Below, in pieces: positions 5,260-32,524 of a stretch of DNA of 64,000 bases; position 1 is the first letter of the stretch, and each line of letters starts with the position of its first letter. The DNA comes from Sphyrna mokarran. Its lineage: Eukaryota. A program made the position numbers and the translations under genes. The stretch lies in the NCBI GenBank assembly GCA_024679065.1, contig JAGIQG010000022.1, positions 23,684,001 through 23,748,000 on the forward strand, in the 5' to 3' direction. The notes under the pieces were generated by a model. That model worked only from the letters and a program-made list of their open reading frames with translations. It was not told the DNA's origin and ran no database searches.

Positions 5260-5405
5260 GGGGAGACAGTGGCATTTTGGTATTCTTGGTGGACTAATAA
5301 TCCAACTTTGGATTATTCCAGAGAGCCAGTTTTGAATCTGGAATTAAATTAAAAGTCTAATGATGACCATGCAATCATTATCAATTGTTATAAAAGTCCA
5401 TCAGA
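5260..5405 (+). mobile_element. SINE family B, 5' fragment
   Basis: GGGGAGACAGTGGCAT...AATCTGGAATTAAA..GTCTAATGATGACCATG. Confidence 0.7.
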
Positions 5406-6720: not shown

Positions 6721-7019
6721 TTATACATATGCAATTCTTGTGGGTCAAGTTATACATTTTAAAATCACAGCGTGTGAGACTTCATGACTCTTTTTGTAAA
6801 TGACTTTCAGATCACAGGTGTAGAGAAATTAAAAGATGGAGTGAAAACTCTTATGGTAAGGCCACAACCTGTGACAGTTTGGTCAACATTGAATATTATC
6901 TGTCTGCAAATGCATGCAATATAGCAGAGCTAGCTATGAATGGGAACCAAGGTCAAATCATTGGAATGCTGTACAAAGATTGAGAGAGCCAGTATCCTGT
7001 CTAAAGACTGAAATAACAA

Positions 7020-7545
7020 GTGGTCCACATGGACCATTAGCCACCAAGGATGCCTTGTATCTCCAGTGTAAGAAGATGTGCAAATGTGGTTTGCCAGGAT
7101 GCTGCCTTGATTAGAGGGCACAAGCTTTAAGGAGGGATGGACAATCCACAGTTCTTTTCTTTAGAGCATTGGAGGTTGAGGGGAGACGTGATAGAAGCCT
7201 ATAAAATTATGAGAGGCTTACATAGGGTTGACAATCAGAACCTTTTCCCCCAGACTTGAAATTTCTAATACTGGGTATATGCACTTCAGGTGAGAGGGTG
7301 AAAGTTTAAGGAAATGGATATGTTTTTTACACACAGAGTAGGTATCTGGAACACACTGCTAGGGGTGGTGGTGCAGGCAGATATGATAGGTGATGTTTAA
7401 GGGTCTTTTAGATAAGCACATGAATATGGAAGAAATAGGAAGATATGGACCAAGGGCAGGAAGAAGAGATTAGCTTAATTTGGCATCATGTTCAGCATAA
7501 CATTCTGAATTAAAGTGCTTTTCCTGTGGTTTTATGCTATATTCC
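7020..7545 (+). mobile_element. CR1 LINE 3' fragment
   Basis: GAGGTTGAGGGGAGACGTGATAGAAGCCTATAAAATTATGAGAGG (RLRGD.IE.YKIMR) followed by 3' UTR. Confidence 0.85.
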
Positions 7546-7717
7546 CTTTGTGTTGTCACAGCGGGAGTGATGACAGATCCTGTCATCAAATTAAGTGATG
7601 TCAGGGGTCCAAAAATTGGAATCTGAGCAAACAACGTCCTCTGTTCAATGTAATCCCTACATGTGGACAATAAAATAATGGGTGTGAGCCCAGTGGTAAA
7701 AAGCATGATGCTTTTTA

Positions 7718-11956: not shown

Positions 11957-12205
11957 AGGACAGTCATTCCCTGTTTCATTCCCTAGAACAACGCCTTAGC
12001 CAATCAGAGTCTACCTGCGAGATTTAAATTTAAACAAAGCTTGGAAGTTAACTGTCAGTTGCTGGTCAATTCTCCATGACAATGTCACTTGCCGATCAAT
12101 CTGTACTCTCTTCTCATGCAGTACAAATTGTTGTTCCCTTTACAAGTCTTGCGAATTGTCCTGGTGAGTGCAAGATGAAAAGTTTTGAGAGCACGTCTAT
12201 TCTTA
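11957..12205 (+). mobile_element. Interspersed repeat with CCAAT/TATA-like motifs and a decayed hammerhead motif (PLE pLTR/retrozyme-like)
   Basis: AGCCAATCAGAG, CAGTACAAATTG, then TTGTC-CTGGTGA-GTGCAAGAT-GAAA-AGTTTT. Confidence 0.55.
12156..12191 (+). ncRNA. Degenerate type I hammerhead ribozyme motif (family 3)
   Basis: CTGGTGA (for CUGAUGA), short stem II, GAAA, AGTTTT (for palindromic stem III). Confidence 0.45.
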
Positions 12206-12783
12206 GAGCAAATAACTGCAATCGATGAACCTAGCATTTTTGCACTTAACCCACAATGAGAACCTAAAGCTGCAATCAAAAATGAACAGAAATAGGACAC
12301 CTAATCTAAAAAGATGCTTTTATAATGAAGAGCAAGACTGAATAGTAAAACTGAACGTTAGGCTTGCTATACAAAAGAATGGAGGTCAGTAGGTTAATTA
12401 AATGACTCTATCTGTTGTCTTGTCCAACATATTGATGATGTTATCTTTCATTTTCCAGTACAGTATATTTGACCATCCTGAAATAATTACCATTGCAAAT
12501 ATATACTGAATTAAATATACACTGAATTAACATGATGAAAGTTTTTTTATCTGCCACAAAATGTGTCAGGTTAAATAATGCATTCAATTCCCACGATGAT
12601 GCAGGGGTTGATGCATTTGAAGTGCCTGATGTGAGCAGTGGACAATTTGGATGGAATTCTCCACATAATTTTTGAGGTGGAGTATATTGCAAGAATAATG
12701 TCCCGGTCTCTCAGGCGTGTTTGACACCGCAATTGTCCCACACTCAGTCACATTTTTGAAGAGTTGTGTTGTGTAGCAGTACT

Positions 12784-13015
12784 AGAACATAGAACGTAGA
12801 ACATTACAGCGCAGAACAGGCCCTTTGGCCTTCGATGTTGCGCCAACCAATTAAGAAAAAGCAATGACCCTCTAACCTAAACCATTCCCGTTTCATCCAT
12901 AAACTTATCTACTAACCTCTTAAATACCCCCAAACTTGGCGCATCTACAACTGCAGCAGGCAGGGCATTCCATACCCTTACCACTCTCTGTGTAAAGAAC
13001 CTACCTCTGACATCC
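12784..13015 (-). mobile_element. CR1 LINE 3' end
   Basis: (AGAACAT)n tail complement; ORF RGRFFTQRVVRVWNALP...FKRLVDKFM. Confidence 0.9.
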
Positions 13016-13890
13016 TGGGATATACTCTGACATACTGGGAGGGGATTGGTAGGATGGTGGGAAAGTGGAGGAGAAAGTGTTGGGGAGGGGTGCCTAAACA
13101 AGCCAGTGAGTGGGCCCCAGAAGGTTCAGCTGCCATTTTATAAGGGCATCTCAATTTTAAAATGCATTAGGAGAGTTTGTCCCTCTGCCCATTACCATTG
13201 GGATCACTCCTCATCAATGTTCTCTTATCCCCTTCCCAACAAGGGTCTCTGTTTTTGAGATCTTACAAATGGGTCCCCCGTCATGACCTCCGACAAAACC
13301 CCTCATCGTGAACCTCTTCATGATCCACCTTTCCATGAATCTCCTCACATGACTCCCCTGCATATCCCCTCATCATAGCCCTCCTTGTTATAGCCAACAC
13401 TGGTCACAGCTTCCACTTAGGCACAACCCCTTGGGCACTGACTCTGGCACGCTGGCAATGCTTAACTGGCACTGCCAGGGAACCTGGTGGCCACTTTTGG
13501 GGTGTCTGGTGGGAACTGCCAGCTTGTCCAATGGACACTGCCAGGATTAAAAGGTAGCAAACTAGTTTTAAAACGGAATTGGTTAAGAAGACAGGTTGAC
13601 TGAGATGAAGCATCTGGGGTCTTTGAGATATGGATTGGCCTAGCAAACTGTGAATAGACATTTATCTAAGAGAAGGGAATAACAATAGGTCAACAAATTT
13701 CAGGAGTTTAAGCACGGAAATTCAAAAGAGAAAATGAGGGTGAATTTTACACTTGCATTCTAAAAGGGTAATCACTTATAAGAAATGCCATTAAGAGAAA
13801 TTTCCAAGGCAAATAGTTCAGATAAGAAAAAAACAAAAGGAAAAGCAATCAGTCAGTGGCAAGTTGCTTCCTATATGGTGAGCTGAGCTG

Positions 13891-15526
13891 CACTCTATAC
13901 CAACATCCCCCACGGTGATGGCATTGCAGCAACTTCCTCGGTACTCAGCCCAATAACTGCCAATCTCCAGATACAATTTTACAACTCATCTGCTTCATCT
14001 TGGACCACAATGCCTTCACCTTCAACATCTGTTCTTCATCCAGACACACAGAATAGCCACGGGGACCAAATGTTGGCCCCTCAACATGCCATCATCTTCA
14101 TGCACAGGTTCAAATAAGATCTCTTCACTGCACAGGACCTTCAACCAATGCTATACACTAGATACATAAATGACATTTTCTTCCTTTGGACTCATTGTGA
14201 ACAATCACTGAAACAACAATATTTTGACATCAACAAGTTCCAGCCCACCATCGGACTCACCATGGACTACTCTCCAGAATAGGTTGTATTCTTGGATGCA
14301 TGCATCTCCATCAAGGATGGTCACCTCATCACTTCATTGTACTGCAAGCCCACAGATAACTTAATGATGTTCCACTTCTCCAGCTTTCAACCTAAACACG
14401 TTAAAGAAGCCATCCCCTTCAGACAAGCCCTCCATGTACATAGGATCTGTTCAGATGAGGAAGGTCACAACAGACACCTCCAAACATTGACAGATGCCCT
14501 TATAAAAACAGGATATAGTGTTCAACTCATCTATTGACAGTTCTGATGTGCCACAATGAAAAACCGCACCAACCTCCTCTGAAGACCAACACGGTACACA
14601 GCAGATAGAGTATCCTTTGTCATCCAGCGGAGAACCTATGAGATTTCAACATATCATTGATGATGAACATCTCACCAATGCCATCCCCACACCTCCCACT
14701 TTTTGCCTTCAAACAACCGCACAACCTCAAACAGACCACTGCCTGCAGCAAACTACCCAGCCTTTAGGAGAACAGTGACAACACCACACAATCCTGTCAC
14801 AGCAACCTTGGCAAGATGTGCTGGATCATTGACATGGATGACATCATCTCACATCAGAGCACCATCCACCAAGTACATAGTACATATACTTGCAACTACC
14901 TGATACATCACAGGGGAAAGGATGTCCAGAGACATGGTACATGCAGACATTATGACAATGGATGAATGAACACCATTCGACAATCACCAGACAAGAATGT
15001 TCTCTTCCTGTTGGGGAACACTTCAACAGTCATAGACATTCGGCCTCTGGTCTTTGGGTAAGTATGCTCCAAAGCAGCCTTCATGACACACAACAACACA
15101 GAATCGCTGAGTAGATACTGAAACTAAGTTCCATACACATGAGGATGGCTTCAACTGGATCTTGGGTTCATGTCACACTATCTGTAACCCCGAAGACTTG
15201 CCTGGGTTTGTAAAATCTCACTAACTGTCCTGACTGGAGACAATACACATCTTTTTAACCTGTAGTTAATCTTCTCTCCACTCACATTGTCTGTATCTTT
15301 AAGACTTGATTGCCTGTAAAGACTCGCATTCCAACTATTATTTTGTAAATTCAGTTTGTGTCTTCATATTCCCTGCTTGTGAACAGAACTCCCACTCACC
15401 CGATGAAGGGACAGCATTCCAAAAGCCAGTGGTTTGTGTTACCAGATAAACCTGTTGGACTTTAACCTGGTGTTGTGAGACTTCTTACTGTGTTTAGCCC
15501 AGTCCAATGCTGGCATCTCCACATCA
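13891..15526 (+). mobile_element. 5'-truncated Penelope-like element (RT C-terminus, probable GIY-YIG remnant, pLTR) with 11 bp TSD
   Basis: LYTNIPH, LDHNAFTFN, RYINDIFFLW, LYCKPTD...KEAIPFRQALHVHRICS; TSD GAGCTGAGCTG at 13880-13890 and 15527-15537. Confidence 0.93.
15397..15431 (+). ncRNA. Degenerate hammerhead motif in Penelope pLTR (family 1)
   Basis: CAC-CCGATGA-AGGGACAGCATTCC-AAAAGCCA-GTG; stem I CAC/GTG intact, core mutated. Confidence 0.55.
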
Positions 15527-15759
15527 GAGCTGAGCTGAGCAGAGCTGGCTCAAGATTACAGCCACACATCAGAAGCACTGTTCACTCCAAACAAGGGAAT
15601 GCCTGGGAAATTCTGTTTGAACCACCAGTCATTTCCATTTTAAAGAAGAAATCCCAAAGGAGATAAAGGTACTAATTGTGGTAACTATTACTAGATTTTG
15701 CTTATTGTTTTAAAACCTATGCAATATTGTTTGGAGATACTTAGCTCTGAGTTTAGGAA

Positions 15760-15932
15760 TACAATTGCAAGATTTAAAAGACATTTGGATGGGCACACGG
15801 ATAGGAACGTTTTAGAGAGATCTGGTCCTAGCACAGGCAAATGGGACTAGTGTAGTTTAGGAAACCTGGTGGCCATGGATAAGTTGGGCTGAAGGTCCTG
15901 TTTCCATGCTGTAAATTTCTATGACTGTATGA
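15760..15932 (+). mobile_element. HER1/CR1 3' UTR
   Basis: TTTAAAAGACATTTGGATG...TTGGGCTGAAGGTCCTGTTTCCATGCTGTAAATTTCTATGAC. Confidence 0.88.
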
Positions 15933-16860
15933 ATATAAGTTGGTTTGGATCTGAGTCAATTCAATAATGTGTGTCGCCAACATTGTAATTAAGTATATGT
16001 TTTGTTTCAGCGTGCCTTTCTTCTTGTGTATTTTCCTGTTTATTGAACATCTCATTTGTTTCATTATTATAACAAGATTCAACTTTTCTTCACTAGTCTT
16101 CATATCTTTCCTCATCCCAAATTTCAAAAAGTGCAGTTTGCAACCAGCATTCCAGAACTTGTAGTCTCAAGCCTAAAAATATTATTAGTCACAAAAATGC
16201 AGAAGTGGCATTAGGTTTGGGATTGACCATATACCAATGACACTGTCAGGAAGGTTCCTGCTGACAACTGGGAAATTTTGATAAACATGCTGTTTTCAGA
16301 GCTTTTAGCCACTTATTATTCTCCTAAAAGTTCACTGTCAGAAACGGTCATTATTTTTAAAGGTATTGATTTGTCGAATTTGATAAGCGGCCGGAAGGAA
16401 TAAACATGCCCTAGTGTTTTAGATAACTGGTGAGAGTGCAGTTGTGATCCTAATCTCACCACGCGTTTCTATCAGCAAGGAGTACTTAATCACTGGGCTT
16501 GTGGATCAAGGAGTGACTTAAATCTCTGAAAGATTCATAGCAAAATACGTTATTGATTTGTTGTGGATAGGGCTAAAGATGTCGTAGTTCTAGGTGCAGT
16601 TAATATTGTGGAAAAGATATGGGATGAGATGATCTCCCGAACTTGCAGCTGTATGCGTTTAAGAAAAAAATGAGCCATTATTTATCCAGTGGAGAGAAAT
16701 GAATCAGCTAACAAATCAGATGACTTGATGTGGAATTTGTGAGAGAGCAGAATGTAAGGGTACATTTAGAGACCAAGACAGTTTTAGTCGTGGGTAGACA
16801 TGACAATTGAGCAGATAAAGTGAAGAATAATTTGGACTTCCAAATGCTATCCAAACACAC

Positions 16861-17192
16861 GGCAGGTTGGCACAGTGGGGGGTAGCACTGCTGTCTTGTA
16901 GTGCCAAGGACCCAGGTTCAATTCCCAGGTCTTTTAAGCCTCAGGTCACTTTGTATGGACTTTGCATATTCTCATGTGGGTTTCCTCCGGTTGTTCCGGT
17001 TTGATCCCACACTCCAAAGATGTGCGTGTCAGGTGGATTGACCATACTAAATTGCCCTTTCGTGTGAGAAGCAACAGGAAGGTAGTAGGATAAGCATATG
17101 GGGTTATGGGGAGAGGGCCTGGGTAGGCTTATTGTTGGTGCAGACTCAATTGGCCAAATGACCACCTTCTGCACTATAATGACTCTATGATC
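16861..17192 (+). mobile_element. HE1/V-SINE
   Basis: tRNA head, V-domain and CR1 tail ending GACTCTATGA. Confidence 0.9.
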
Positions 17193-17839
17193 CTATAATA
17201 ACTTCTCACATACCTCAGCTACCCACCACCCCACACCCCTTCCCCCCCCTCTCCACACCATCCCACTCCCTCACCTCTTCACCGTGCTGAAACCATTGTG
17301 CAATGTTCAGCCTTGGGCTAATCCATATTTTATCAACCAAAAAAACTGATCTGGGTAATTTTCTACAACAAAATCAGTGTGCACAAACTAGCTAATAATC
17401 CATTGTTCAATATTGTACACTGTGGGACATAAGCTGCAATAAAATGTATTATTATAATTAAACTATTCTATTAGAATTAAGAAAAAACCAGCAACTTTAA
17501 CTGCATGGGGCAGTTAAGTATTATCCAGACAGGATAACAGGGAATAATTTAATTTGCAAAACATTGTTTAAAATTATATAATAGCCGTTATTAAATAATG
17601 ACATTTTAAAGTAAATTTTAAGCTCCCCTGAGGTCTAATTATCCTTGAAAGTCCAAACAGATAATAACCATCGGGCTGAAGTGTTTTGTTTGGATTTGGG
17701 TTGATCATTTAAATGTTCTCAATGGATCCTTGAACCGGTGTAAGATATCACATAGTGAAGTAAAAGCATTGTTCAAACCATCACCGCATGCACGCAGCAC
17801 TGATGGTAAGGTAGCGATGATACGGAGTGTGTGGGAATC

Positions 17840-17906
17840 AAGCCGGCATAATGGGCTAAATGGCCTCCTTCTGTACCTTAACAAAAAAAACCTGTGATTC
17901 TGTGAT
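17840..17906 (+). mobile_element. Very short CR1-type tail
   Basis: ATGGGCTAAATGGCCTCCTTCTGTAC...TGTGATTCTGTGAT. Confidence 0.7.
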
Positions 17907-18106
17907 CCGCTGGAAGTTGGCAGGGTTGATAACAAAATGACCAAAGGAACGGTGTTGGTGATGTGGGGGTGTCAACGATTGTGTCGGATTATTTGAACAA
18001 TTCTGTTTGCATGCGGTCTCACCAGTGGGCAGTGATGTTCAGATTTTAGGATGTAAAGTGGTGATTCTAGTCAGAATCATAGATGGTGCGTACCTACATT
18101 CCTGAA

Positions 18107-18408
18107 ATTTAAAGTTTATTTATTAGTGTCACAAGTAGGCTTACATTTATATTGCAGAGAGGTTATTGTGAAAATTCCCTGATCGCCGCACTCCGATATT
18201 TGTTTGGGTATACTGAGGGAGAATTTAGCTGACCATACATCTAACCAGCATGTCTTTTGGACTGAGGGAAGAAACCAGAGCACTGGAGGAAACCCACGCA
18301 AACATGGGGAGAGCATGCAGATTCCACACAGATAGTGATCCAAGTCAGGAATCAAACCTTGATCTCCAGTGCTTTGAAGCAGCAGTGCTAACCACTGTGC
18401 CATCATGC
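18107..18408 (-). mobile_element. V-SINE type 2, full length
   Basis: AAGTTTATTTATTAGTGTCACAAGTAGGCTTACATT...GCAGCAGTGCTAACCACTGTGCCA. Confidence 0.93.
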
Positions 18409-18969
18409 TGTCTGATGGGCAAAGTGCTCCGTCAACAGCGTGGATGTGAAAAGTCGCACTCCCAATGCACTGCAGAGAACATTAGGGTTTGAAACTGCAA
18501 ACGAAAGATTGAGCCCAAGGTAACACTGGTCAAAAATGAATACTGAAAGGAGATAGATATAAAAGAGAATAGCAAGAAGTGAAAGGTTTGGAGAGGGAGT
18601 TCCTGAGGTCATAGCCTAGGTAGCTGTCAGTGATGGAGCAAGGAAAGTGAGGGTGCGCAAGGTTACAGGATCTGATACTTAGCTAAAGTTGGTACATGAC
18701 TTACAGTTGGACCCCAGGACTTCTATGTGTGCATTGTCCAGCAAAGTGCCACATATGGAGAGTTTGTTATTCAGTGAACAGGCTGGAAGCTGGCCTGCAC
18801 ATCTATACTGAAGAAAAAGGGGCAAAGAAGTGAAACAGCAAGAAACTGCAAGTCAGGTAACCTAAATCAGGATGCCATTAAAAGGAAGGTGCTCAAGGGA
18901 ACTGCAGGTGATGGGCTTGGTACAGGAAAGGGTGGTAAAATTGAGGAAGTTTGAACAATGCTTCTTCCT

Positions 18970-19006
18970 GCTTTGACAAAGGGTCATCTGGACTCGAAAC
19001 GTCAGC
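18970..19006 (+). ncRNA. Minimal type I hammerhead ribozyme motif (family 2), core decayed
   Basis: GCT-TTGACAA-A-GGGTC-ATCTG-GACTC-GAAAC-GTC-AGC: stem I GCT/AGC, stem II GGGTC/GACTC, palindromic ACGT, GUC triplet. Confidence 0.65.
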
Positions 19007-19068
19007 TCTTTTCTGTCCTTACAGATGCTGCCAGACTTGCCAGGATCTTCCAGTGTTTTCTCTTTTGA
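18973..19068 (+). mobile_element. ~96 bp PLE-derived mini insertion with 12 bp TSD
   Basis: TSD CTTCTTCCTGCT at 18961-18972 and 19069-19080; body ...GACTCGAAACGTCAGCTC...ACAGATGCTGCCAGAC...TTCCAG. Confidence 0.85.
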
Positions 19069-19149
19069 CTTCTTCCTGCTATCTATTTTTCCACTGTGTC
19101 CTGACATCCTGCAGAGTCTGGTGAAGACAGCTAGGCCAGAGAGAGTGCT

Positions 19150-19590
19150 ATGAAGGGAATGAAGAATTTGTCATATGAGGAGCAGTTGAAGAGTTTGGGT
19201 CTATACGCAATGGAGTTTAGAAAGATGAGAGGGGATATCGAATTGAAACTTACAGAATGCTAAATGGAGTGGACATGGAGAGGATGTTTCCACTCGTGGG
19301 AGAGACTAGAACTTGAGGGCACAAACCCAGAGTGAAGAGACGCTCCTTTAAAACTGAAATGAGATGCATCTGTGGAACTGATTGCCACAGAAGGCTGTGG
19401 AGGCCAGGTCATTGAATATCTTTAAGACAGAGATAGATAGATTCTTGATCAATAAGGAGATCAAGTATTACAGGGAGAAGGTGGGAGAATAGGGATAAAA
19501 ATCACATCAGCCATGACTGAATGGCAAAGCAGACTCGATGGGCCAAATGGCCTATCTCTGCTCCTATATCTTACAGTCAATGGTCTTCTA
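19150..19590 (+). mobile_element. CR1 LINE 3' fragment
   Basis: TGGAGTTTAGAAAGATGAGAGGGGAT...CTGTGGAACTGATTGCCACAG...GACTCGATGGGCCAAATGGCC. Confidence 0.88.
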
Positions 19591-20158
19591 AGTGTACTGG
19601 ACTGGTATTTAAATGTGGCACGGGGATCTTCAAACCCACTAGCTGATGGTGGGTAGATGGGTCAGCAGCTGTCCCACCTGGAGATTCAGATAGGAACTCA
19701 CCAGTGCTCCCATTTGGACAACTTCAACAGGGATCTGCCTCGAGATATTCAATAACACATTGCCAGATTCCTTTCCCCTGAATCTGTGAGAGCACTCACA
19801 ATTCACCTTCCGTACATGCTTTCAGATCTTCAGTCATACCAAGTAGAACACCACTGTTCCTTTGCCCTTGCGACCTGCAGCATGGAACCACTAACCTTCA
19901 GTTGTCTTCTTGCATCTTTTGAGCTTCTCTGATCTCATATTGATTCTATTGCTCATATTGCTCTATTCCTCACAACTCCAAGTCTTTAACTTGGAGACTA
20001 TTTCTCTGTTCCTTTGTCTCAAATTTACTTTACCAGATCTGTTTTGGATCTCTGTCTTCGTTCCTTATCTGGAATTATCCAGGACATGTTTCTGATCTTT
20101 GTCTTTGTCGCTATTTGGAACCTTCCTCTGTGAGCTCTCCTTATCCCCTCCCCGTGTT

Positions 20159-20463
20159 ATCATAGAATCCATGAAACTCATACAGTGCAGAAGGAGGCCA
20201 TTCAATCCTTGGAGTCTGCATCAACACAACATCTTAACCATCCGATCTTTGTAACTTAAACCATCTTATCTACACAATTGGGACACTAAGGGGCAATTTA
20301 GCCTGGCCAATCTACCTAACCTGCATGTCTCTGGGAGGAAACCAGAGCACCTGGTGGAACCCATGCAGACATGGGGAAAACATGCAGTGTTCACACAGAT
20401 AGCCACCCGAGACCAGCATCAAATTTGGGTCCCTGGCACTGTGAGGCAGCAGTAATAACCACC
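20159..20463 (-). mobile_element. HE1/V-SINE
   Basis: ATCATAGAATC...AGTGCAGAAGGAGGCCATTC...GGCACTGTGAGGCAGCAGT. Confidence 0.9.
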
Positions 20464-21601
20464 TTTGCTGTTCAGTGTCTGATCAGTTTTTAACATGTAC
20501 TAAGAATGGAATGTGAGCTTCACAGTGTCAACAATAAGAATAGTCTTGCCAGTAATTATGATCATGATCACAGCATGGAATTTAATGACCTTTTCTTCTT
20601 TCAAGGTACTGCAGTGGTCAGTGCAAGATTGGTTAGTTTGCAGTGAACAGTTACATCAGTAGATCATGGATGCATTGAATATCTTCAGCTACTTTACCTT
20701 AGAAACTTAACCTCAGAATCAGAGTTACCAAAATGCCTTTGGATTGCAGTCCTAAAGTCCAGGATGTGAATGTTTCGGCTATTTGATCATCTAAATATCT
20801 ACACAAAGTACAGTTTATAAATGTTCTTGATAACACCAAATCCAAGTGCAGGTGGGCAAACGATCATCAACCCAAGAATATGCAAGACAAAGCCAGTTTC
20901 CTTAGCAACAATCACAATTCCCTGATTGCAAGGCAATCCTTCTGAATAATTTAAGGGAGCAGCCATTCTGGAAAGCTGATGTTCTGGAGATTAGAACTCC
21001 TTACTTGTGACAGTCAGGCCCACACGGTTAGAAAGATGATTGCAAAGCTTTACTTCAGCTATCCTGCGGCAGTGTTTTCAGTGCCAAAGTGGGACCAGGA
21101 AAACATACCAGTGCACCTCAGGGCCTTAATTCATCATTGTCTGTCGCATGTTGTTAAACTTTGCCAGATTTTACACTTCAGGAGTTGTAGGTCTGCCTGA
21201 TATTCTTTTGAGAATCTCCCAGTGTGAGTCTCAGTCCAGGCTGGAAATTCTCTTCTCTCTAACTAGGGCTGTTATAGAAAGATTTTATAGGACTGGTCAT
21301 CCAGATTTACCCGCTTTAGTTCAAAAAATAGGCTAACAGCAATTTGATTTATTTAACTGTTGACATCAATGAACACTGGAGTGTAATAGATGGAAAATAC
21401 CTCAATGTGGCTTGAATCAATGAAGCTTTATTGCCAAATAACAAATAATGTATATACAACAAGGTTAGACTAAATTACAATGCAACTGCTCTATTAGGTG
21501 TGTTGGCTATGCTAAATACTCCCTCAGAGTACCCAAATAGGCTCCAGAGTGTGCCAATTAGGAGATTTTCTCAGTAACTTTGTTGCAGTGTTACTGTGGC
21601 C

Positions 21602-21830
21602 ATGAGATGGATATGCCAGTGTTGGACTGGGGTGAGCACAGTAAGAAGTCTCACAACACCATGTTAAAGTCCAACAGTCTTATTTGGAATCAGGAGCTTT
21701 CAGATCTCTGCTCCTTCAACTCACCTGATGAAGGAGCAGCACTCTGAAAGCTCACAATCCCACATAAATAAACCTGTTGGATTTTAGCCTGTGTTGTGAT
21801 TTCTCACTGTGATGTAGAGATGCTGGCATG
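21602..21830. mobile_element. Inverted pair of Penelope pLTR fragments
   Basis: AGTAAGAAGTCTCACAACACC...GCTTTCAGATCTCTGCTCCTTCA / CCTGATGAAGGAGCAGCACTCTGAAAGC...AAACCTGTTGGA; same family as the pLTR at 15190-15526. Confidence 0.85.
21722..21755 (+). ncRNA. Hammerhead motif (family 1) with intact CUGAUGA/GAAA core
   Basis: CAC-CTGATGA-AGGAGC-AGC-ACTCT-GAAA-GCTC. Confidence 0.65.
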
Positions 21831-22829
21831 GTACTTTGTACTTCTTATAGTATTAATGTAAGCCTACTTGTGACGCCAATAAATAAACAGTAAAAAAAAA
21901 TTCGACCTCCTATCTCCAACTGCGAGCTCCCCCGTGACCGGTGGTACACGCCCTCTCACTGATTGGCTCAACCTCTCTTTGTGGGATCCATAGAGCTCTC
22001 AACAATCACGTGGTCCTCGCCTGTGCCTCCCTCTCTGCCCCCCAAACTCCCCCCTTAAAGGGCCATGCTATTACATGGAGATTCTAAGTGGATGTGATCA
22101 CCGTAGAGTTTGAACTGAGAATCTTGAGTTATTCAAGATACACTGTGTCCTGTTTTCATTGTAGGTAGAGTTAGGATATGCCATCAATATGACCAATACT
22201 TAATTTGAAGTAGTCGCTTCTGCTTTCCTCAGAGAAGTCAAAACATTTTAGCTCTTTCCCCTTGTCTGTACAGTCAATATAGCAATTATTTGATATACCC
22301 ACATCTTGCAATGTCCTTGGAGCATTCGGCTGACAGCTGAACACCTTTGTTCAATTAAATACATTTTAAAATAGAGAAGGATATGACTCAGTGAGTATCA
22401 AGAGGACACTCAATGTCATTATACGATCACAGGTAATTAAAACTCCTTGGCTCCTGCCATTATTCATGCACAGTTCCTTCATAATTTGTCAGCTTTCTGA
22501 ACCAGAGAAAGAGGTCCTAGAATAGGTTCAAAGAAGGCCTGCTGAAATTAAGTTACCCTGACAGTCACAGAGTACTGGTCTTTCTACTATGGAATACCAT
22601 TGACTTAGGTGAGGTTTAATTACAGTATTTAAATTTATAAAGGGATTATCGGTGTGGATATTTATTTTGAATAGAAAAGTTAAGCAAAAGGTTAGCATTC
22701 TATCTGATCCTCAGCTAAACTTCCAATCCAAGATTGTCTTCATTGCAAAAATATTGTAAGCTTCATCTCTACTCTGTAAGTTTAATTGCACAGCAAATGT
22801 TGCTTTACGTATCTTAATTCCCACACTGA

Positions 22830-23557
22830 GGGGAGATGATGGCCTAGTGATATTAGCACTAGATGATTAATCTAGAAAATTAACTATTGTTCTGGGGACC
22901 TGAGTTCAAATCTGACCATGATTTTGAATTCAATAAAAAAAAACTAGTATTACGAGTGAACTGATGACCATGAAACATTTTTGATTGTTGGAAAAACCCA
23001 TCTGGTTCACTAATGTTCTTTAGAGAAGAAAATATCCATCCTTACCTAGTCTGGCCTACATGTGACTCCAGAGTCACATCAATGTGGTTGACTCTCAACT
23101 CCCTCTGGCACGGCTTTGTCAAGGACAACTTGGGTGGTACCGTTTATACTGCTGCCTCACAGTACCAGGGACTCAGGTTCAATTCCGGCCTTGGATCACT
23201 GTCTGTGTGAAGTTTGCATGTTCTCCCTGTATCTGTGTGGGTTTCCTCAGAGAGTACCCATTACCTCCCACATCCAAAGATGTGCAGGTTAGGTGGATTA
23301 GTCATGTTAAATTGTCCTTTGTGTCCCAAGATGTGTAAGATTAGGTGGATTGGCCATGCTATATTAACCTTAGTGTGAAGGGGAAAGGCAGGGTAAATGC
23401 ATGGAGTTACAGGGAAAGGGCCTGGGTGGGATTGTTATTGGTGCAGGCTTGATGGGCTGAATAGCTTCCTTCTGCACTGTAGGGATTCTATGATTCTAAC
23501 TAAGGATGGGTAATAAATGCTGCCCAGCCTATGTACCATGAATGAATAAAAAAAAAT
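22830..23557 (+). mobile_element. SINE family B interrupted by HE1
   Basis: Head GGGGAGATGATGGCCTAGTG...GTTCAAATC; body to about 23105; tail AACTAAGGATGGGTAATAAATGC...poly-A from about 23498. Confidence 0.85.
23106..23498 (+). mobile_element. HE1/V-SINE
   Basis: CTGCTGCCTCACAG...duplicated TTAGGTGGATT..CATG.TA segment...GGGATTCTATGATTCT. Confidence 0.9.
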
Positions 23558-23574
23558 GCTCACTAAACTACATT

Positions 23575-23946
23575 CCCTCCCAGTCCACTAAGATCCGAAT
23601 TGTCAAATTCTTCTCTTGTGTTCAATCCATACCAGGTCTTACATTTTCCTACCCACCCCTCTATTCAATTTTGTAACATTCTCTAGCCCTTGCACTCTCG
23701 GGAAACTCTGCCTTCCAACTCTGGTTTCTTGTGAATCTCTCATTTCATTCATCCTGCTGCTGATAACTGGGCCTCCAGTCACCTTGATCCTAAGCTCTGG
23801 AATTACTACCCTAAATCTCTCTGCCTCTCTAGCTCAAGGCATTGCTTGTAAACTATCTCTTTAATCAAGCCTTCTCCAGTTACATTCCTGCAAGTCTCCT
23901 TGATTTGTTCTAGAGGTGAAATGTAAATGCATGTCTCTGTTATTGT
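23575..23946 (+). mobile_element. L2-clade LINE 3' remnant
   Basis: CCTAAGCTCTGGAATT..CCCTAAA...AAACTATCTCTTTAATCAAGC...AAATGCA...GTTATTG. Confidence 0.55.
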
Positions 23947-24539
23947 GAGAATAACACCTGGCATCACCAGAAATTTCTGCAGGCCTTGGCACACAAGCCT
24001 GCCAATACTACAGCCAACAAAGAAACGTTTGTAGAACATTATGATCCATCGTACATTTACCATACAGTGACAGCACTATTGCTGTGGCCAATACATTCAT
24101 TATGGCCTTTAGCCCTTGGTTTGTTTTTAGTCTGAAATGTCAGCCACTGCATTGCTCACGCATGCATCAGTTAGATGGTTGATGCAGCATGGCCAACACT
24201 GGCATCTCTTTGGACATTGAATACAAACTGTCCAATGTCACCTTCCTGCTACATTTCTCAAATACAGGTAACACTAAGGGTTGTGTTTCAGTGTAGCTTA
24301 TCTTTGATATTAGTTAGTGACTATACATTTCTGTTATGCTTATTTGGTATGGAAGTCTTTGGAAGAAGTGAGTGTGGTAAGGCTTTCAACTGCACATACC
24401 TTGCACAGTGCAGAGATATGGGCGTGCATGAGACACATTTGAAGTTTTTGGCAAACGAAGACAGTAAATGCAGGGCAGGCAGCTTTGTGACATTCATTCA
24501 TCTGCCATCTACCTCACTGAAGCCAATCCCTCCAGCATC

Positions 24540-24850
24540 ACAACTATGATGGTGTGAAATCAGTTCTTCTGTTCCGGACACTCCATCAGCATGCACAGTT
24601 ATCAGCTTCTGAAGCTGATCCTTTTTGCACAATTTAAAGTTGATAATAAATCTCAAGAAGGAGAGAGAACATGTTTTAAGGGCATTCTGGCGGTCTCGTT
24701 AAAAAGGAGACAAATTGATGTTGATGCATGGGAGGAACTTGCAATGAACTGTATAACATTTAGCAGCCCCTCATCATCCAATAAGCCACAACATCATCGG
24801 AAACAGACTACATGTCATGGGGAAACGATGAAAGTGGAAAAAAAGAGAAC
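24540..24850 (+). mobile_element. RTE-clade LINE C-terminal remnant
   Basis: ORF 24591-24854 QEGERTCFKGILAVSLKRRQIDVDAWEELA resembles the RTE motif GGQRKRFKD.LK.SLK...ID...WE.LA. Confidence 0.6.
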
Positions 24851-25305
24851 ATAAAGTGATGGCTAGAGGAACCTCCCCATTCCCCAAATCCTGTTGTCAT
24901 TATCTCCCCTCTCCCCCTACCTCCTCCACTACCAGCACCACTCACTCTTAGGCCAATTCCTACCTCCATGGCCCACAGACGTCCGGCTCCAGGATTGACT
25001 TGCTGAATCACCTTAGGACACATATATCATAATGCCTGGCAGACATTATCCTTCTTTCAAGGAATTGACAATGGCATGGTATTGTTGGATGGCCTTCAGA
25101 TCTATCATAATGTCCCTTAAACTCCTTGTTCGTTCCTCATGTCTGGGTGATCCTGTGGAGACATCATATTGGCCAAGCAAATACAGCATGCAGCAGTAAA
25201 AACAGAAAAATGCTGGAAAATCCCAACAGATCTAACAGCATCTGTGGAGAGAGAGAATAGAGCCAAAGTTTTGAATTTGAATTTGAGGTCAGGGCTGTCA
25301 TTTTG

Positions 25306-25344
25306 ACCTCTGATGAAGGGTCATTCTGACTTGAAACATTGGTT
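25306..25344 (+). ncRNA. Hammerhead motif (family 2) with intact core
   Basis: CTGATGA-A-GGGTC-ATTCT-GACTT-GAAAC-ATT. Confidence 0.6.
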
Positions 25345-25420
25345 CTATTCTCCCCCTCTACAGATACTGCAGGCCTGTTGAGATTTTCCAGCATTTCTTA
25401 TTTTTATTTCAAATTCAGAA

Positions 25421-25741
25421 GCGGAATGATGGCACAATAGTCAGCATAGCTACCTTCCAGTGCTAGGGTCCCAAGTTCAATTCTGACCTCAGGTCACTTT
25501 CTGTGTGGAGTTTGCACATTCTCCCCATGTCTGAGTGGATTTCCATTGGATGCTCCAGTTTCCTCCCACAGTCCAAAAGTGAGCAGGTTAGATTGATTGG
25601 CCATGCTAAATGGACCCTAGTGTTAGGGGAATTAGCAGGGTATATGTGTGGGGTTGTGGTAAAGGACTTGGGTGGGATTGGGGTTGGTACAGACTCAATG
25701 GGCCAAATAGCCTCCTTTTGTACTGTAGGGATTCTATGATT
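25421..25741 (+). mobile_element. HE1/V-SINE
   Basis: Head, V-domain and tail GGGATTCTATGATT. Confidence 0.9.
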
Positions 25742-26749
25742 CCAGCATCCACAATATTTCGTCTTGCAGTTTGTCTATTTCTGAAACTTCAAACAGTGAA
25801 CAGGTTGTTCTGCCCATAGAGTCTAATTTGTGCCTCTACACTGGGCATTCCATCCTTTCAGGCCTGTTATTTTATCTTACTCCACTCCACATGAGAAACA
25901 AAGCTATAATGTGCTGTAATATTTGAGTCTTTTGAGGACTCCAACAATTTTTGTGTTCGATATGCGAGCATTAACCTTCGAATGACTTTACCACTTCAAA
26001 TTTGAACATAAGGACAGCATAGTTTTCACCCAGCCAGTGACATTTTAAAATCGATTCCTGTGCAGCGATTGATGAAAAGCACCTCATCCCTGCCAACATG
26101 TGAATTGGGCCTGCAGCAGTAAAATTGATGGCTTTCATCCAGGACATCTAATTTGCCTCATTTATATTTTTACAGGACACATTCTGTGATCTAACAAATG
26201 GTTTCATGAATCCAGCACCAAATATGCAAGCTCCATTGTAATTGTACAATCAACAGGAACACCAAGCTACACGATTCATTCTGGACTACATAATGCTAAT
26301 ACAAAAAATTAATGTTGAAGTTTCTAGTTCACAAAAGCATTAATTACAGTACATCTCTGAGAAATGCTGTCATTTTTTCATTGCATATCACACACTCTAA
26401 ATGTGACAGCAGAAACAAAGTACTGCTGCAAGATCTTCATAATAAAGTTGCAGACATGTGGCAGCATTTTTTGATGTGGACTGACTACGAGTGAGGCCTT
26501 ACCAGTGGGACAGAGTATCAAAAATTGAACCTAATACAAAAGTGGACAATGCCTGAATATCATTTGTCCGTCTTGACTCTTGATCTCCTGAAACTTGAAG
26601 AGCTTTGACAATAACTGTTTCAGATTGACTAGACCCTTCAATTATGAATCAATAATCATGCAAAAGCCCATTTCCATCATCTGGAGAGGTTGGGCAGAGC
26701 ATTCAAATTGAACTGAGAAATTTTGTGACATGCCTCATTAATCCGCAGA

Positions 26750-27440
26750 AGATGATAAAGTCAGTGAATGAAGACTATCCGGGGAATATAATTTACTCGG
26801 AGTTTTCAGAAGGCTTTTGATGAAAATTTTGTGATTGACACTTTAAAACAGAAAGATTAAGCCTTGTCAAGTTGGTGGAAAACTCCCAACCTGGTTTTCA
26901 AAGCTGGCTGTGTGCAGCAGGAAACAGAAACTAGTGATCAGTGGAAAATGTTCTTACTAGCAGAAATCTACAGGGGTATCTCCTCTGTCTCTCAATGCTC
27001 AATGCTATGTATGAATAATTTGAGGGAAATTTGCAAGGTCTGCTTATGACATAATTCTAAGCTGCCTGATGACAAGTAGTCAAAAGCCATTGAAGTGTCA
27101 AGGAAGGGTCAAGGAATGTATTGATGGGTCAAAGAAGAACCGATGGAATTTGATGTAAATATGAAGAAAAGAATGCTGACATGAAGGAAAAATTGCAATT
27201 CTGAAATAGACCCATTGATCATCAGGTTAAGTGAAGCATATCACTTATTCCATTACAGACAGGACATCAAAAAATTAGAAAATTGTTTGTGTAGCCAGAT
27301 TGACATCAACAAAACCCAACAAAAATACATCAAGTGGCTAAAAAAAGTGGGAATATCAGCAGAAATCTAGTAAGAGATACTATGTCGTCCCCAACAATTA
27401 TACAAGGCTTCTATACAATAAATGGGCACTGCACGTTGGT
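26750..27440 (+). mobile_element. Highly decayed CR1 RT remnant
   Basis: ATAATTTACTCGGAGTTTTCAGAAGGCTTTTGAT resembles IYLDFQKAFD; later ATGGAATTTGATGTAAAT resembles M.FN..K. Confidence 0.55.
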
Positions 27441-27554
27441 GGTTAACACTTTATAGACTTTGACAAGTGGCTTTCAATAACGCTCATTAGTAACAGTGGA
27501 AATGGATTTGGATTTGATTGCTGAGTAGTCACTGGACACATACTGTAGTCAACC

Positions 27555-28050
27555 ATAGAGTCATTGAAACATAAGTGCAGAAAAGCCCTTTGGCCCATTG
27601 AGTCTGCACCTACAACATCTACCACTAAAGGTGTGCTAATCCCATTTTCCCTGCACTTGACCCATAACCTTGAATGCTATGATAGTTCAAGTGTTCATCC
27701 AATATTTTTTGAAGGTTGTAATGTTTTCAGCTTTGACTGCTTTCCCAGGTAGTGCATTCCAGATTCCCATCACCCTCTAGGTAAAAAAGTTTTTTTTTCT
27801 CAAATCTCCTCTGAATCTCCTGCCCCAACCCTAAAACTATGCTCCCTTGTGATTGACCCCTCAACCCAGGGGAACAATTGCTTCCTATGTACCCTGGCCA
27901 CACCTTTCATAATCTTATACACCTCAATCATGTCCCCCCCTTAGCCTTCTCTGATCTGAAGAAGACAATCCAAGCCTCCTTATGGCTCAATTGTTTCATC
28001 CCAAGCAGATGAATCTGCTCTGTATGCCCTCTAAGGCTGTCAATCTGAAG
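27555..28050 (-). mobile_element. CR1 LINE 3' fragment
   Basis: CATAGAGTCATTGAA tail complement; TTTCATAATCTTATACACCTCAATCATGTCCCC (GDMIEVYKIMK on the minus strand). Confidence 0.88.
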
Positions 28051-28904
28051 CAGTTATAAGTGAGAGCCAGCAAATTCCAGGAGATGTTTCAAAGTTATTT
28101 GAACAGGATTGATTAAAATAATTCTGATAGCCTTGAATTCAATCATTGACCACGTTGGATTCAGGTCAGTTTTTGATGTTCTGCACCATCTCCCACGTAG
28201 CCCAACCCCATTTCTAAAGTCACTGCTGTGTATCTGGAATTGTCTGTTAAACATCGGCTGTGTGAGGTTGCTTCAGCACCACACAAATCTTATAAAATAT
28301 AAGTCATGATGCACTAAACATGCCATGTTATCTTCAAAAGGGCACTCATGTCTTCACTGAGTTAGTGGAGAAGTAACAAACACAATTCGTAAATTCTAGC
28401 GGTAATGAAAAGAGATTTGTTGAGATAAATTTGTTTTTGCAAAAATAAAAAAGATTGGCAGGATACTTAATCAGAGGCTTTAAAATGTTCAGCGACACAG
28501 TTGCTTGAGCCACTACTGCGTGATCTGTCTTGGCTTGAGAGTGCAAAACCAAAACTGGTTAATTTAAAGAAACTCAAACCAGTCCACAGATTGGAAGAAT
28601 TACTTTTTTTCTTCCTCTTACAATGGTAAAGGAAAAATTAATGGATGTTGTGGCAAGATCAAGATATAGCTGAGGAGTAACATTGGAAGCTGTTATAAAT
28701 TTGGGTCTCATAAATATTTTGTCACCATTAATTCCAACAATTCTTCTCTTAACATCTTACTTATATGGGGTCACGAATGGTGTGGTTAACACAGTTGAAT
28801 CTTAATATTTGTAGGAAAGAATGAGTCTGAAGTCAGCCTGCACCTTAAATTAGATTTATTTCCACATATGCAGAGTAAAAACAATGACCACCCTGCCCTC
28901 AAAA

Positions 28905-29130
28905 CACCAACAGGATTTCCGACAGTGAACTTGGCTCACCAACGGCCATCAGCAGGATCTTCCAGTCCTGCCGACGTCTATGGCATCTTGTATTGCTTGT
29001 TTGTCCTGCCACTGGGGAAGTTGCCATGGATGGGTTGGAGAGGGAGTGGAGTGGGGATGGGGGTTGCATGGGAGTCGCCTTTGGCAGGACTACAACACCC
29101 CGCTGGTAAGAAGGGCTGGAAAATCCTGCC
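28905..29130. mobile_element. Short Harbinger-like MITE inserted in the Copia 3' LTR
   Basis: CAGGATTTCC...GCAGGATCTTCCAGTCCTGCC...GGCAGGACT...GCTGGAAAATCCTGCCC; hairpin-like; related copies near 40720, 47680, 49850. Confidence 0.6.
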
Positions 29131-30085
29131 CACGGCCTTTCCAATTGCCCACCCAATGTGATCATCTTTTTTATAATCTTGTAATGAAGCCCTGATAGTT
29201 GGGAGAAGTTGCTCTTGATTATCGAAATATAACATATACCCTATTGCAGCATACGTGCAGCATTAATAGATTTCCCCTTTCTAAAACAGAATAAAAGGTA
29301 CATTCAAATAAAAAGTAAACTGAAGACAGAGAAATAAGGCACACATTTTCAAAACTCACATCTTACTCGTCCTTCTAATGCCCTCAATAAGTTTTCACTA
29401 TGAGTGGATGGAACAATTTGGTAACCGATGGCTTATACCAACCCATTAGAACTTAGAAGCTTCCTTTATCTCCACCGTTTGTTTTAGACTTGCAATACCA
29501 ACTGTTAATCATCTCTCACTCACATTTTTTGTGGATTGTATGTTATCCCAACAGGATACGACATCCTGTTGGGACATTTCTTCTGTTATTTTCCACATAT
29601 AATGGGGGAATTTCTGTCCCTATTTTTGGCGGATGGAAATGGGGATCAGGAGCAGAGAATCAAGGGGGTGTCTCAAAACAGCTTTCACATTGGTGGGATT
29701 TCCCTGCTCAATTGTTCCCCGTCACCCTCCGCACCCGCCCCGCCATTAGTGTTCCTGCCATGCAGTCGGAGTGGAGTGGGGTAATTGAAATATTTTGACA
29801 TTGAAGCTCATATTAAAATGCACATTTAGAAGAAATAGATGAATATTAAAAGTTTCAAAGTTAGCCATGGGAGCCATTCAGGCATGATGGGAAAACTAGT
29901 CAGAATATGGCATTAAGGAGATAGTCAAGCAAATGCTGAGTTCTCCTGCTCCCTCTAATTCTTCCCTTGATGAAAGCTTCCCTGCATGTACATAAGGCAT
30001 TTAAATGAGCATAAAAATGGAACTAATAGCAGTTCCTTCAAGAGCAAGGAGTGCGTTCAGCAACGCTGACAGAAACTTTGGATTC

Positions 30086-30496
30086 CTACCCTATACCACC
30101 TGGTACAAAATATACCCCACCCCCACCAATCATTTGCAAAGAATTTTTTGCACATACTGCCCATACCAGTGCAGTTTGCAACTTATATTCTGGTTGGTCA
30201 ACCAGTATCTGATGTAACACTTTGTCAATTACTGCATAATTCTTCCCACACAAGCCATTGCTGAAGGTGCTCTCAACTGCAGTATTCATGGCTATGACAA
30301 TCAGATTTTCACACAGATTGTCCCAAAAATGATCATTTGCAAATTCCCCTCTATTGTCTGTTAGGAATTTTGTCAGTACTCCGAATCCAAAGCCCATCCA
30401 TTTCTCCGTGAGTTTATCTACAATGGTTTGTTTATCCTTGCCATTTATTGCTGTAGGTTGGCTACATTTACACACCATATCGACAAAGTGTAACAA
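30086..30496 (-). pseudogene. Copia (GalEa-type) integrase core remnant
   Basis: LHFVDM...KFLTDNRGEFAND...NTAVESTFSNGLCGKNYAVID...ALVWAVCAKNSLQM matches the DDE integrase pattern TDNGGEF / SNG.CERNH. Confidence 0.85.
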
Positions 30497-32117
30497 AAAA
30501 AAAGTGTTGTCCCATAATCGTAAAATATATTACCACTAAATCATTAAATACTCTGTCCAGCAGCGGAGAACAGGTCTTATTGCCCTTCAATATTTAATAC
30601 AAATATCACACTGAACTGTAACTTGCTCAATAATGGTGTTGTATTCTTTATCAACCACTCCAACTTCTCTTGACAGAGTTTTCCATTTTTGTGATGCTGG
30701 ATGTGCAAAATGTAAATTCCAGATAATCTTTTCTCTTGTCCAACAAACCTTTATCCCCAAAAGTTAACAATATTGCAGTTCAATGTCTTTCCTGAATACA
30801 GTTGCTTTATCATTTTCTATGTCTAATTTCATCTGTACTATTTTATCAAAAGTTGGCTCAACAACATAAGCATCTCACGAGAGACTGCATCAGTACTGAT
30901 GAAGAGACAGGTCCCAGCATTTTTGCATGGGAGGATTGCCTTTCTGAAAGATGCTAACATCTTGTCATCCCCAAACCTAAAATATTTGGAGCTTCTGTAT
31001 TCTAGATTTCGCCAATCTGCTTCATCAAGAGATTCCAGTTAGCAGTGAAGCCAATCCACTCCACATACTGGAAGTGCAACACCTATTTAAAACTGTACAG
31101 TTAAACAAATCAGCAAACAAAATACTCATCACCACATTCAAACTCCCAGTGACCTTCACAATGATTTCTTGGCAGTCACCATCAACATTCTCAGCATTGA
31201 AATTATCTGTTTCATGCAATACTTCAAAAACATTATTCTTTCATTGTGGGAAATTCATTGCTTAATGATATTTAGAATGACAAAAACACTACCATTAATT
31301 ATTCCTGCTGCATTGCTCAGAATCAAGGTAGATATCCCAGACCTATTCTTGTCTCAATTCTCAAATTGGCTAAAAGTGCAGCCATCTTCAGCATGCTATC
31401 AACAACGCCATCTTTGAACTGAAACCTGCGTCAAATACCTTCGTGACTTAGAACCATAGAGTCTTCCCTCTTTTGCCTTGTAGCAGAGTTTGTCTGTATA
31501 TAATAGAAACTTTGCTGCAAATGTCTTACTTTCCCAAAATCTGGTTATCTGGTCTTGGCACAAGCCTTTCCATGAAATTGAATGCTGGCCAAAACCAAAA
31601 GTCTATCGACATGAAAAGAAACATACCCATTCCAATCACTTGAAAGCCAATGTGGACCCCTGGATTTTAAGGTTAAACTTTTTCAATCTTTTATAATCAC
31701 TTATCAAAGTCCATAATATATTCTGCCATGAACTGATCATCCATTTTCATAAATCCATCATAAGTTGACCCTGCTTGATGTGCTTGAGCCAATTATACTT
31801 TTGTAAAATTTCCCAAAAACAGGAATAGAAATCTCTCTTCAGCGTCCAAGTCACCCATATCCAATTCTAAAAATACTTTACACCTAATTTTTGGCAGGTA
31901 ATGACAAAACCAAGACCACATTTCGCTTCCTCGGAGTACTGTTTCGGGCCCACATTTCAACTTCATTTCTCCATTGCCAATATTCTTCTGTCTCCAAGAG
32001 GAAATAGTTGATAGCCAAAGTCTAAGATTGTCTGCCATTCTGTAACTGCTTCTTTTCGTCTCAGAGGATAGAGACAAAAACTTCTTATTTAACTGTCAAT
32101 CACCACAGCTTAATGTT

Positions 32118-32132
32118 CATCCTCTGCCACCA
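32118..32132 (-). promoter_or_regulatory. Primer-binding site resembling the complement of initiator tRNA-Met
   Basis: Minus strand TAACA|TGGTGGCAGAGGATG versus canonical TGGTAGCAGAGGATG, directly after the LTR end. Confidence 0.8.
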
Positions 32133-32409
32133 TGTTAAATCTAGTATTTATATGTTGAGGAAAGAATGAGCCTGAAACCAGCCTTTGGTCTGTTGAGCCG
32201 GCAGGGAAACTCATTGTATTTATGTAGGAATGAGTAATGTCAACATTTTACTTTAGTATTTTTCAGAGATCAAGAAATACTTCTGGGGAGTCTCCTCAAG
32301 AACACCATACCCAGAATCAGTGTACAATCGTTTAGATATTACATAGTTTAGGGAAGAAAAAAAACACTGGTGACCAAATGCCACTTTCTGCTCTATGTTT
32401 TCTTATAGG

Positions 32410-32524
32410 TTCGGTGTTGAATTGGGGTAGGCACAATAAAACGTCTGACAACACCAGGTTAAAGTCCGACAGGTTTATTTGGAATCACGGGCTTTCAGAG
32501 CACTGCTCCTTCATCAGATGAGTC
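32410..32524 (-). mobile_element. Penelope pLTR fragment with hammerhead motif (32486-32520)
   Basis: ACAACACCAGGTTAAAGTCCGACAGGTTTATTTGG..GCTTTCAGAGCACTGCTCCTTCATCAG; minus strand CTGATGAAGGAGCAGTGCTCTGAAAGC. Confidence 0.85.

Follow-up and report, generated by a model that had tools for sequence, protein, structure and literature searches.

Minimal hammerhead ribozyme relics in the pseudo-long terminal repeats of three Penelope-like element families of Sphyrna mokarran, with copy ends that point to an uncut RNA template

A 64,000-nucleotide stretch of the Sphyrna mokarran genome (the window; assembly GCA_024679065.1, contig JAGIQG010000022.1, forward-strand positions 23,684,001 to 23,748,000) contains six minimal hammerhead ribozyme motifs. 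We think it probable that these motifs are fossil minimal hammerheads in the pseudo-long terminal repeats (pLTRs) of three families of Penelope-like retroelements (PLEs), most of whose short copies were likely reverse-transcribed from the front end of uncut RNA. An earlier interpretation, made without database searches (the sequence-only reading), had proposed three hammerhead families at six sites, and all six sites are present, with core position C3 at 12161, 15400, 18973, 21725, and 25310 on the plus strand and at 32517 on the minus strand. Its list was correct for these six and overlooked two antisense arms, at 21603-21728 and 25175-25274. An exact-core descriptor with a stem II of at least 4 bp returns four of the sites (18973, 21725, 25310, and 32517), as compared to a mean of 0.05 and a maximum of 1 match in 100 simulated windows of the same dinucleotide make-up. 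The sites at 12161 and 15400 are decayed members that were assigned through family homology, not through the descriptor. Genome-wide, exact patterns match 3709 times for family 1, 1445 times for family 2, and 419 times for family 3, and a family 1 tail pattern matches 9422 times; the reversed controls give zero. The Rfam scan proposed in the sequence-only reading affords no hammerhead family match in the window at E ≤ 1. Because these are minimal forms without helix III, this result lowers only the case for membership in the Rfam families. A match to mir-3160 (E 0.24) in the same scan is an inverted pLTR pair.

At the family level, CUGANGA, GAAA, and UH occur in the register of a minimal type I hammerhead. 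Family 1 is laid out as stem I, CUGANGA, A, a stem II of 3-5 bp, GAAA, GC, U, and H. A palindromic 15.1-16.1 segment replaces helix III in all three families: AGCU in family 1 (86 of 97 copies at 15.2/16.2), CG with its CpG decay products in family 2, and AAGCUU in family 3. The palindromic stem III that had been described from the letters is therefore real, except that in family 3 it is six bases long (AAGCTT) and accompanied by a stem II of just 2 bp. Covariation was examined in 97 family 1 copies chosen by homology and not on the hammerhead, with the structure-selected alignment excluded. Covariation is found at three pairs of stem II and one of stem I, with pairing retained at 10.2-11.2 in 89 copies, at 10.3-11.3 in 87 (A-U 43, C-G 21, G-U 13, G-C 10), and at stem I pair 2.2-1.2 in 88 (A-U 67, G-C 18), these being counts of copies rather than of independent events. 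The observed mutual information was reached by none of 2000 shuffles. Compensatory stem changes, which the sequence-only reading had proposed as a check, are thus present, and the stems of family 2 show no covariation within the sample.

The copy at 18970 is the only one in the window with every core position intact, in a U3:A8 form. Those at 21722, 25306, and 32486 retain intact CUGAUGA and GAAA elements but are damaged elsewhere, and five of the six window motifs have lost core or stem nucleotides. Family 2 comprises subfamily 2a, with C3 in 15 of 16 copies, and subfamily 2b, with UUGACAA in 49 of 56. Of 218 family 2 cores that are otherwise intact, the first 100 were counted by hand: 68 have U3:A8, 17 have C3:G8, and 15 are mixed (p 3e-8). 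U3:A8 is a compensatory core, dominant in the subfamily to which 18970 belongs, and the 18970 copy is not decayed. That it might be a CpG-decayed C3:G8 core was ruled out because TTGACAA is found in 49 of 56 subfamily 2b copies and TTGATGA in 0 of 56. A U3-A8 variant is described in Schistosoma by Cervera and De la Peña (2014; PMC4209133), and our literature search found no other report. Separately, one family 1 copy (L021:1279-1318, plus strand) has a U3:A8 core in an otherwise intact fold; such cores occur in 3 of 97 family 1 copies and possibly reflect double decay.

Family 3 combines its 2-bp stem II and six-base palindrome with a 5-bp stem I, the outer pair of which (2.5-1.5) is paired in 53 of 63 copies and varies in step. 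Its 5' leader is able to form at least 5 bp with the stem/loop II segment; 62 of 90 copies have this complementarity, as compared to 6-21 of 90 in four control regions. After TCTTG, the leaders read CA in 22 copies and TG in 17, which suggests CG as the ancestral dinucleotide, and the window copy keeps CG. This pairing counts as one inherited feature; no compensatory change was seen in it. It may form a pseudoknot like those of Perreault et al. (2011; PMC3088659), or it may be an off switch. Those pseudoknotted hammerheads, with a stem II of 1-2 bp, make a base-paired contact between the stem I and stem II regions as family 3 could; however, they have a real stem III and cleave rapidly as monomers, whereas family 3 has only the palindrome, and its pairing could equally inhibit.

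The family copies have fixed 3' regions and frayed 5' ends, and the hammerhead lies in a pLTR behind an open reading frame (ORF) for reverse transcriptase (RT) and a GIY-YIG endonuclease, which bears out the PLE origin suggested earlier. Long family 1 copies reach an ORF with a DKG motif, YIDD, a CHSNLCKTC linker, and the GIY-YIG domain. One family 1 frame is intact over 901 codons and stops ~260 nt before a family 1 hammerhead; a Pfam search with 790 codons gives RVT_1 at E 1.5e-9 and GIY-YIG at E 3e-4 (below the curated cut-off). This frame (L181:2449-5151, minus strand) belongs to a young subfamily of family 1 in which stems I and II differ, and its first ~35 codons look like flanking sequence. 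The open frame suggests recent family 1 activity; no 5' pLTR was seen at this locus. Among named proteins, the relatives closest to the family 1 protein come from sharks (79-87% identity). The architecture recurs at family 2 loci, where tblastn on broken frames gives ~25-30% protein identity and the linker reads CNHRRCNTC. Family 3 is older than families 1 and 2 (~70% pairwise identity), and a peptide from its endonuclease end has 302 related proteins, the longer of which carry RT and GIY-YIG. Among five of these relatives that were scanned, RVT_1 is found in four and GIY-YIG in two, and the linker is absent from the three inspected. The family 3 relatives (32-35% identical) and, by eye, the decayed copies have CCHH and lack the linker zinc finger; no family 3 RT core was recovered. 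The combination of RT and C-terminal GIY-YIG that marks endonuclease-bearing PLEs is therefore seen in the intact frame of family 1, in broken frames of family 2, and through the endonuclease end and relatives of family 3. The pLTR, 5' truncation, inverted 5' copy, and tail of such elements are also present, and a full pLTR-ORF-pLTR tandem was found in none of six extended loci. The Pfam search detected 0 of 10 real short endonuclease fragments, and the word-based protein search was insensitive to family 3.

By their motifs rather than by a tree, families 1 and 2 are assigned as Neptune-type (a CX2-5CxxC linker before GIY-YIG, plus CCHH) and family 3, provisionally, as Penelope/Poseidon-like. 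These assignments agree with the clade descriptions of Craig et al. (2021; PMC8557442) in the C-terminal GIY-YIG with CCHH, in the linker that is present in families 1 and 2 and absent from family 3 relatives, and in 5' truncation, the inverted 5' copy, and a 30-40-bp tail. The linker is also shared by Nematis and so is not exclusive to Neptune. Two further loci (L183 and L184) are inverted pairs of ~2-kb family 1 copies. The flanks of four others (L024, L044, L081, and L249) hold repeat families with a family 2 tail and other hammerhead-like heads; more than three families therefore exist.

Copy ends were measured for 180 family 1 and 129 family 2 copies. The 3' ends are fixed downstream of the hammerhead and form two clusters per family. 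Counted from C3, those of family 1 are at ~+86 to +99 and +125 to +127, and family 2 has its clusters at +93 to +106 and +128 to +132. These ends fall past the cut site, and those of family 1 are also past an AATAAA at +45, so that the template was uncut there. The 5' ends of both families pile up at stem I: the 10 nt before C3 hold 48 starts among the 180 copies of family 1 and 30 among the 129 of family 2, and the 210 nt further upstream hold 25 in each family (~1.2 per 10 nt). An inverted partner accompanies 95 of 180 and 39 of 129 copies, respectively. In the three families, TATA is found at -29, -30, and -31 from a plausible start A; CCAAT boxes occur in family 3 at -57 and -79. In a hand count of the first 100 of 925 family 1 copies that begin at this start, the preceding base was 30 times G, 49 times C (largely template), 11 times A, and 10 times T. 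G accounts for 30 of 51 non-C rows and for 14 of 26 after removal of inverted-junction and template-like rows, as compared to an expected 27% (p 0.003). An extra G opposite the cap is a feature of long interspersed element insertions. The stem I pile-up, together with the extra G in family 1, therefore suggests that the front end of an uncut, capped RNA served as the template.

Several observations weigh against this reading. The start A was picked among nearby A residues with the pile-up position known, leaving TATA spacing as its sole basis. The extra G is not significant in the local samples (family 1 solo copies, 5/14, p 0.15; family 2 solo copies, 5/19, p 0.37). The second 3'-end cluster coincides with the end of the reference, where seed conservation also stops, and the covariation traces to a handful of inherited subfamily changes. 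In family 3, 5' ends pile up neither at stem I nor where the start is predicted: 2 of 38 unselected copies begin in the last 10 nt, and nearly all of the 90 core-selected copies continue upstream. A run-off model is therefore not general, with the caveat for family 3 ends that short old copies are harder to detect. By eye, ~4 of 180 family 1 copies begin at +29/+30, and Drosophila Penelope has a TATA-less internal promoter (PMC2377424).

The last of these points would also suit a different origin of the pile-up, in which the relics are the same but RT stalled or folded back at stem I in the 3' pLTR, so that no transcription start is marked. We regard this as improbable. Position is unable to separate the two, since the predicted start is at stem I in families 1 and 2, and inverted junctions pass exactly through the stem I strands in 7 of 80 and 5 of 79 rows (hand counts), as a fold-back would have it; an intron of Drosophila Penelope also ends at helix I (PMC2377424, PMC4209133). 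However, TATA is equidistant in three unrelated pLTRs, family 1 carries the extra G, a stem of 3-4 bp is a poor block to RT, and the 5-bp stem I of family 3 gives no pile-up.

Starts at the ribozyme cut site are scarce. Among family 1 copies with the tail of one subfamily, 79 genome-wide begin near the site, apparently 14 of them at +29 and 13 at +30 (hand count), with no peak. Ten of the 14 starts at +29 are small deletions or stem I inverted junctions, and a clean +29 start is seen in at most 1 of 30 loci inspected. For subfamily 2b, a clean start at +31 is seen in 0 of 30 loci inspected (of 80). These counts leave room for a cut-site footprint of 1-2%. About 5 of the 79 family 1 rows lack 4 bases just 5' of the cut site, by slippage or by trimming and re-ligation of cut RNA. 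Contigs from four sequencing runs over 18500-19500 contain the family in all four, with mixed sequence before 18970 (agreement 0.35-0.37). This result fits short copies but is no independent map, because the reference itself begins at 18970.

Our proposed sequence of events is as follows. Transcription from a TATA promoter in the pLTR would begin at stem I or up to a few bases ahead of it. The PLE protein would prime at a nicked target, with cDNA beginning ~90 or 127 nt below C3, corresponding to the PLE tail. The cDNA would often run off the capped 5' end, and the resulting stub of 100-130 nt would carry an inverted second arm in some cases and lack it in others. Long copies would depend on a jump into the 3' pLTR or on a template made by tandem read-through. 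In the active element, the ribozyme would be under selection, likely cleaving only as a dimer or with the PLE protein; the genomic relics would be subject to neutral decay and are expected to stay silent within host transcripts. A more specific version, to which we give somewhat less than an even chance, holds that the hammerhead is transcribed first, from a TATA promoter with its start at stem I (or, in family 3, at a leader that pairs with loop II), that the uncut capped RNA is copied from ~100 nt downstream, and that the stubs, in their hundreds of thousands, are integrated strong-stop cDNAs. If so, PLE copying would resemble retroviral minus-strand transfer, the ribozyme would be a 5'-end switch and not a cutter of host RNA, and the family 3 hammerhead, with its 2-bp stem II, would depend on dimers and be assisted by a pseudoknot.

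Internal initiation, the tail, and an uncut template have been published for a PLE of the anole, the Poseidon element PAc (Frangieh et al. 2024; PMC11167929). In PAc, too, copies terminate at two sites 3' of the hammerhead, and the cut site itself is free of RNA ends. Two differences are that the PAc ORF begins inside the hammerhead, whereas the family 1 ATG is ~128 nt after C3, and that a 5'-end pile-up at stem I is not among the features described for PAc in the available text of that report. The fixed start and similar length of the stubs would also be expected of a separate non-autonomous family, SINE-like (short interspersed element) or composed of retrozyme monomers, instead of by-products of full PLEs, and a 2026 preprint derives animal retrozymes from pLTRs and places tandem retrozymes in one chondrichthyan (10.64898/2026.07.22.740005). 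We give this origin hardly any credence: tandem arrays are absent from the loci inspected, the stubs lack the upstream TATA that they would need, and their subfamily variants are identical to those of long ORF-linked copies. Non-LTR retrozymes are tandem units, each with a type I hammerhead, whereas the window copies are dispersed or inverted.

The relics themselves are numerous and mostly dead. In 464 kb around and including the window, 52 core-bearing copies were found; for a genome of 2.77 Gb, this single region extrapolates roughly to 310,000 relics, of which about 28,000 would be intact, in keeping with the very large reservoir that had been foreseen. In DNA unselected for the motif, 17 of 188 core-bearing copies (~9%) are structurally intact (15/99, 2/51, and 0/38). 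Losses are mostly CpG decay, and core positions decay like neutral CpG sites, as at G12, which is replaced by A in 29 of 97 copies and in 11 of 39. A single change at U4, A6, G12, or U16.1 abolishes hammerhead cleavage.

The further suggestion that intact-core copies cleave host pre-mRNA found no support: intactness is limited to one of the six copies in the window and to 17 of 188 unselected ones, two window copies are in hairpins, and copy ends were not seen to pile up at the cut site. Host pre-mRNA cleavage by the relics is unlikely, and the view that they act in this way, in cis or as inter-copy dimers, receives very little weight from us. The size of the intact pool speaks for it, including 218 near-perfect family 2 cores by exact pattern, as does the 18970 copy, which folds both stems when taken alone (P 0.74 for stem I and 1.0 for stem II). 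However, adding 30 nt of context lowers the stem I probability to 0.10, and adding 70 nt lowers it to 0.01; no second intact family 2 copy exists in the window. Pairing with its own antisense arm is predicted to hide each of the copies at 21722 and 25306 within a ~100-bp hairpin, and the palindromes differ among families (ACGU, AGCU, and AAGCUU). In vitro, dimers and trimers of minimal hammerheads have low activity and single ones do not cleave (PMC4209133), and the anole PLE hammerhead is reported to cleave only with PLE protein (PMC11167929). No host exon was recognised in the window, with none of 123 non-repeat frames matching Pfam, a search that short exons could escape.

The ribozymes belong to a known class, described in PMC4209133 and reviewed in PMC6155905 and PMC6765202, here counted in a shark at roughly 300,000 relics. 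They resemble the minimal hammerheads of metazoan PLE pLTRs (PMC4209133) in being type I without a real helix III, in the palindromic 15.2-16.2 segment, in the extra base between 9 and 10.1 (families 1 and 2), in G10.1-C11.1, and in their many consensus families, mostly solo copies, and opposite-strand pairs. They differ in stem II, which is 3-5 bp (families 1 and 2) or 2 bp (family 3) as compared to 7-8 bp, and in copy number, which greatly exceeds the 4,000-9,000 listed there for coelacanth and Xenopus. The available text of that paper names no cartilaginous fish, and shark terms are absent from two of its supplements. A literature search outside most subscription journals found neither shark PLE hammerheads nor a start-site pile-up. 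The copy ends constitute a fossil record for the role of the hammerhead in PLE transposition and for the origin of pLTRs and inverted copies, and they predict a stem I start site, an uncut template, and run-off cDNA. The intact family 1 ORF is usable for biochemistry, and the U3:A8 core and the 2-bp stem II with a pairing leader are natural variants. Short-stem-II or leader-pairing PLE variants may, reportedly, already be described by Lunse et al. in 2016. The leads of modest value are the start-site pile-up, the U3:A8 subfamily, and the family 3 pairing leader.

Within the window, the 3' end of a family 3 PLE occupies 11858..12211 (plus strand), detected as two pieces and comprising the last GIY-YIG codons, a pLTR with CCAAT and TATA remnants, the hammerhead, and a short tail; the family peptide matches RT and GIY-YIG proteins. 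Its hammerhead (12147..12191, plus) is broken, with A6 changed to G and the palindrome and stem I damaged, and its leader TCTTGCG (12147-12153, plus) is complementary to TGCAAGA in stem/loop II. A 5'-truncated, 1.64-kb family 1 element of Neptune type follows at 13891..15526 (plus) and is 62% identical to the intact family ORF by tblastn (E 4e-105). It runs from the C-terminal half of RT through a CxxxxCxxC linker and a GIY-YIG domain with stops and frameshifts to the pLTR, ending with the 15397 motif, a dead hammerhead at 15396..15432 (plus; U4 to C, G12 to A, U16.1 to C). The 11-bp direct repeat at 13880-13890 and 15527-15537 is likely its target-site duplication.

The family 2b stub with a Neptune-type pLTR at 18970..19068 (plus) begins at stem I and is flanked by a 12-bp direct repeat (18961-18972 and 19069-19080), the last 3 bases of which double as the stem I 5' strand. 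Its structurally intact hammerhead (18970..19006, plus) has the U3:A8 core, a 5-bp stem II, the ACGU palindrome, and a 3-bp stem I, with a predicted cut site after C19003. A family 1 antisense arm with a scrambled 5' core (21603..21728, minus) forms an inverted pLTR pair with the stub at 21719..21811 (plus; fold z = -8.6), which begins at stem I and has an intact core and a broken stem I. Similarly, a family 2a antisense arm (25175..25274, minus), spanning the GAAA region through the tail, precedes a family 2a stub at 25306..25416 (plus) with a C3:G8 core, a weak stem I, and a palindrome (ACGU) lost via CpG decay, in a long hairpin. The solo family 1 stub at 32412..32523 (minus) has its first base 6 nt before C3, at the predicted transcription start and preceded by G, and is dead (U16.1 to C).

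Other features of the window include a 147-aa frame at 30089-30529 (minus), which by eye resembles an integrase-core fragment and has no Pfam match at E 0.001. Two 200-nt inverted arms at 444-643 and 1245-1444 are 97% complementary and 601 nt apart, and represent a young inverted-repeat element or an inversion. A ~330-nt SINE-like repeat, which we take to be of the HE1 type, has many copies in the window, for example at 3621-3946, 16858-17202, 23123-23555, and 25425-25751.

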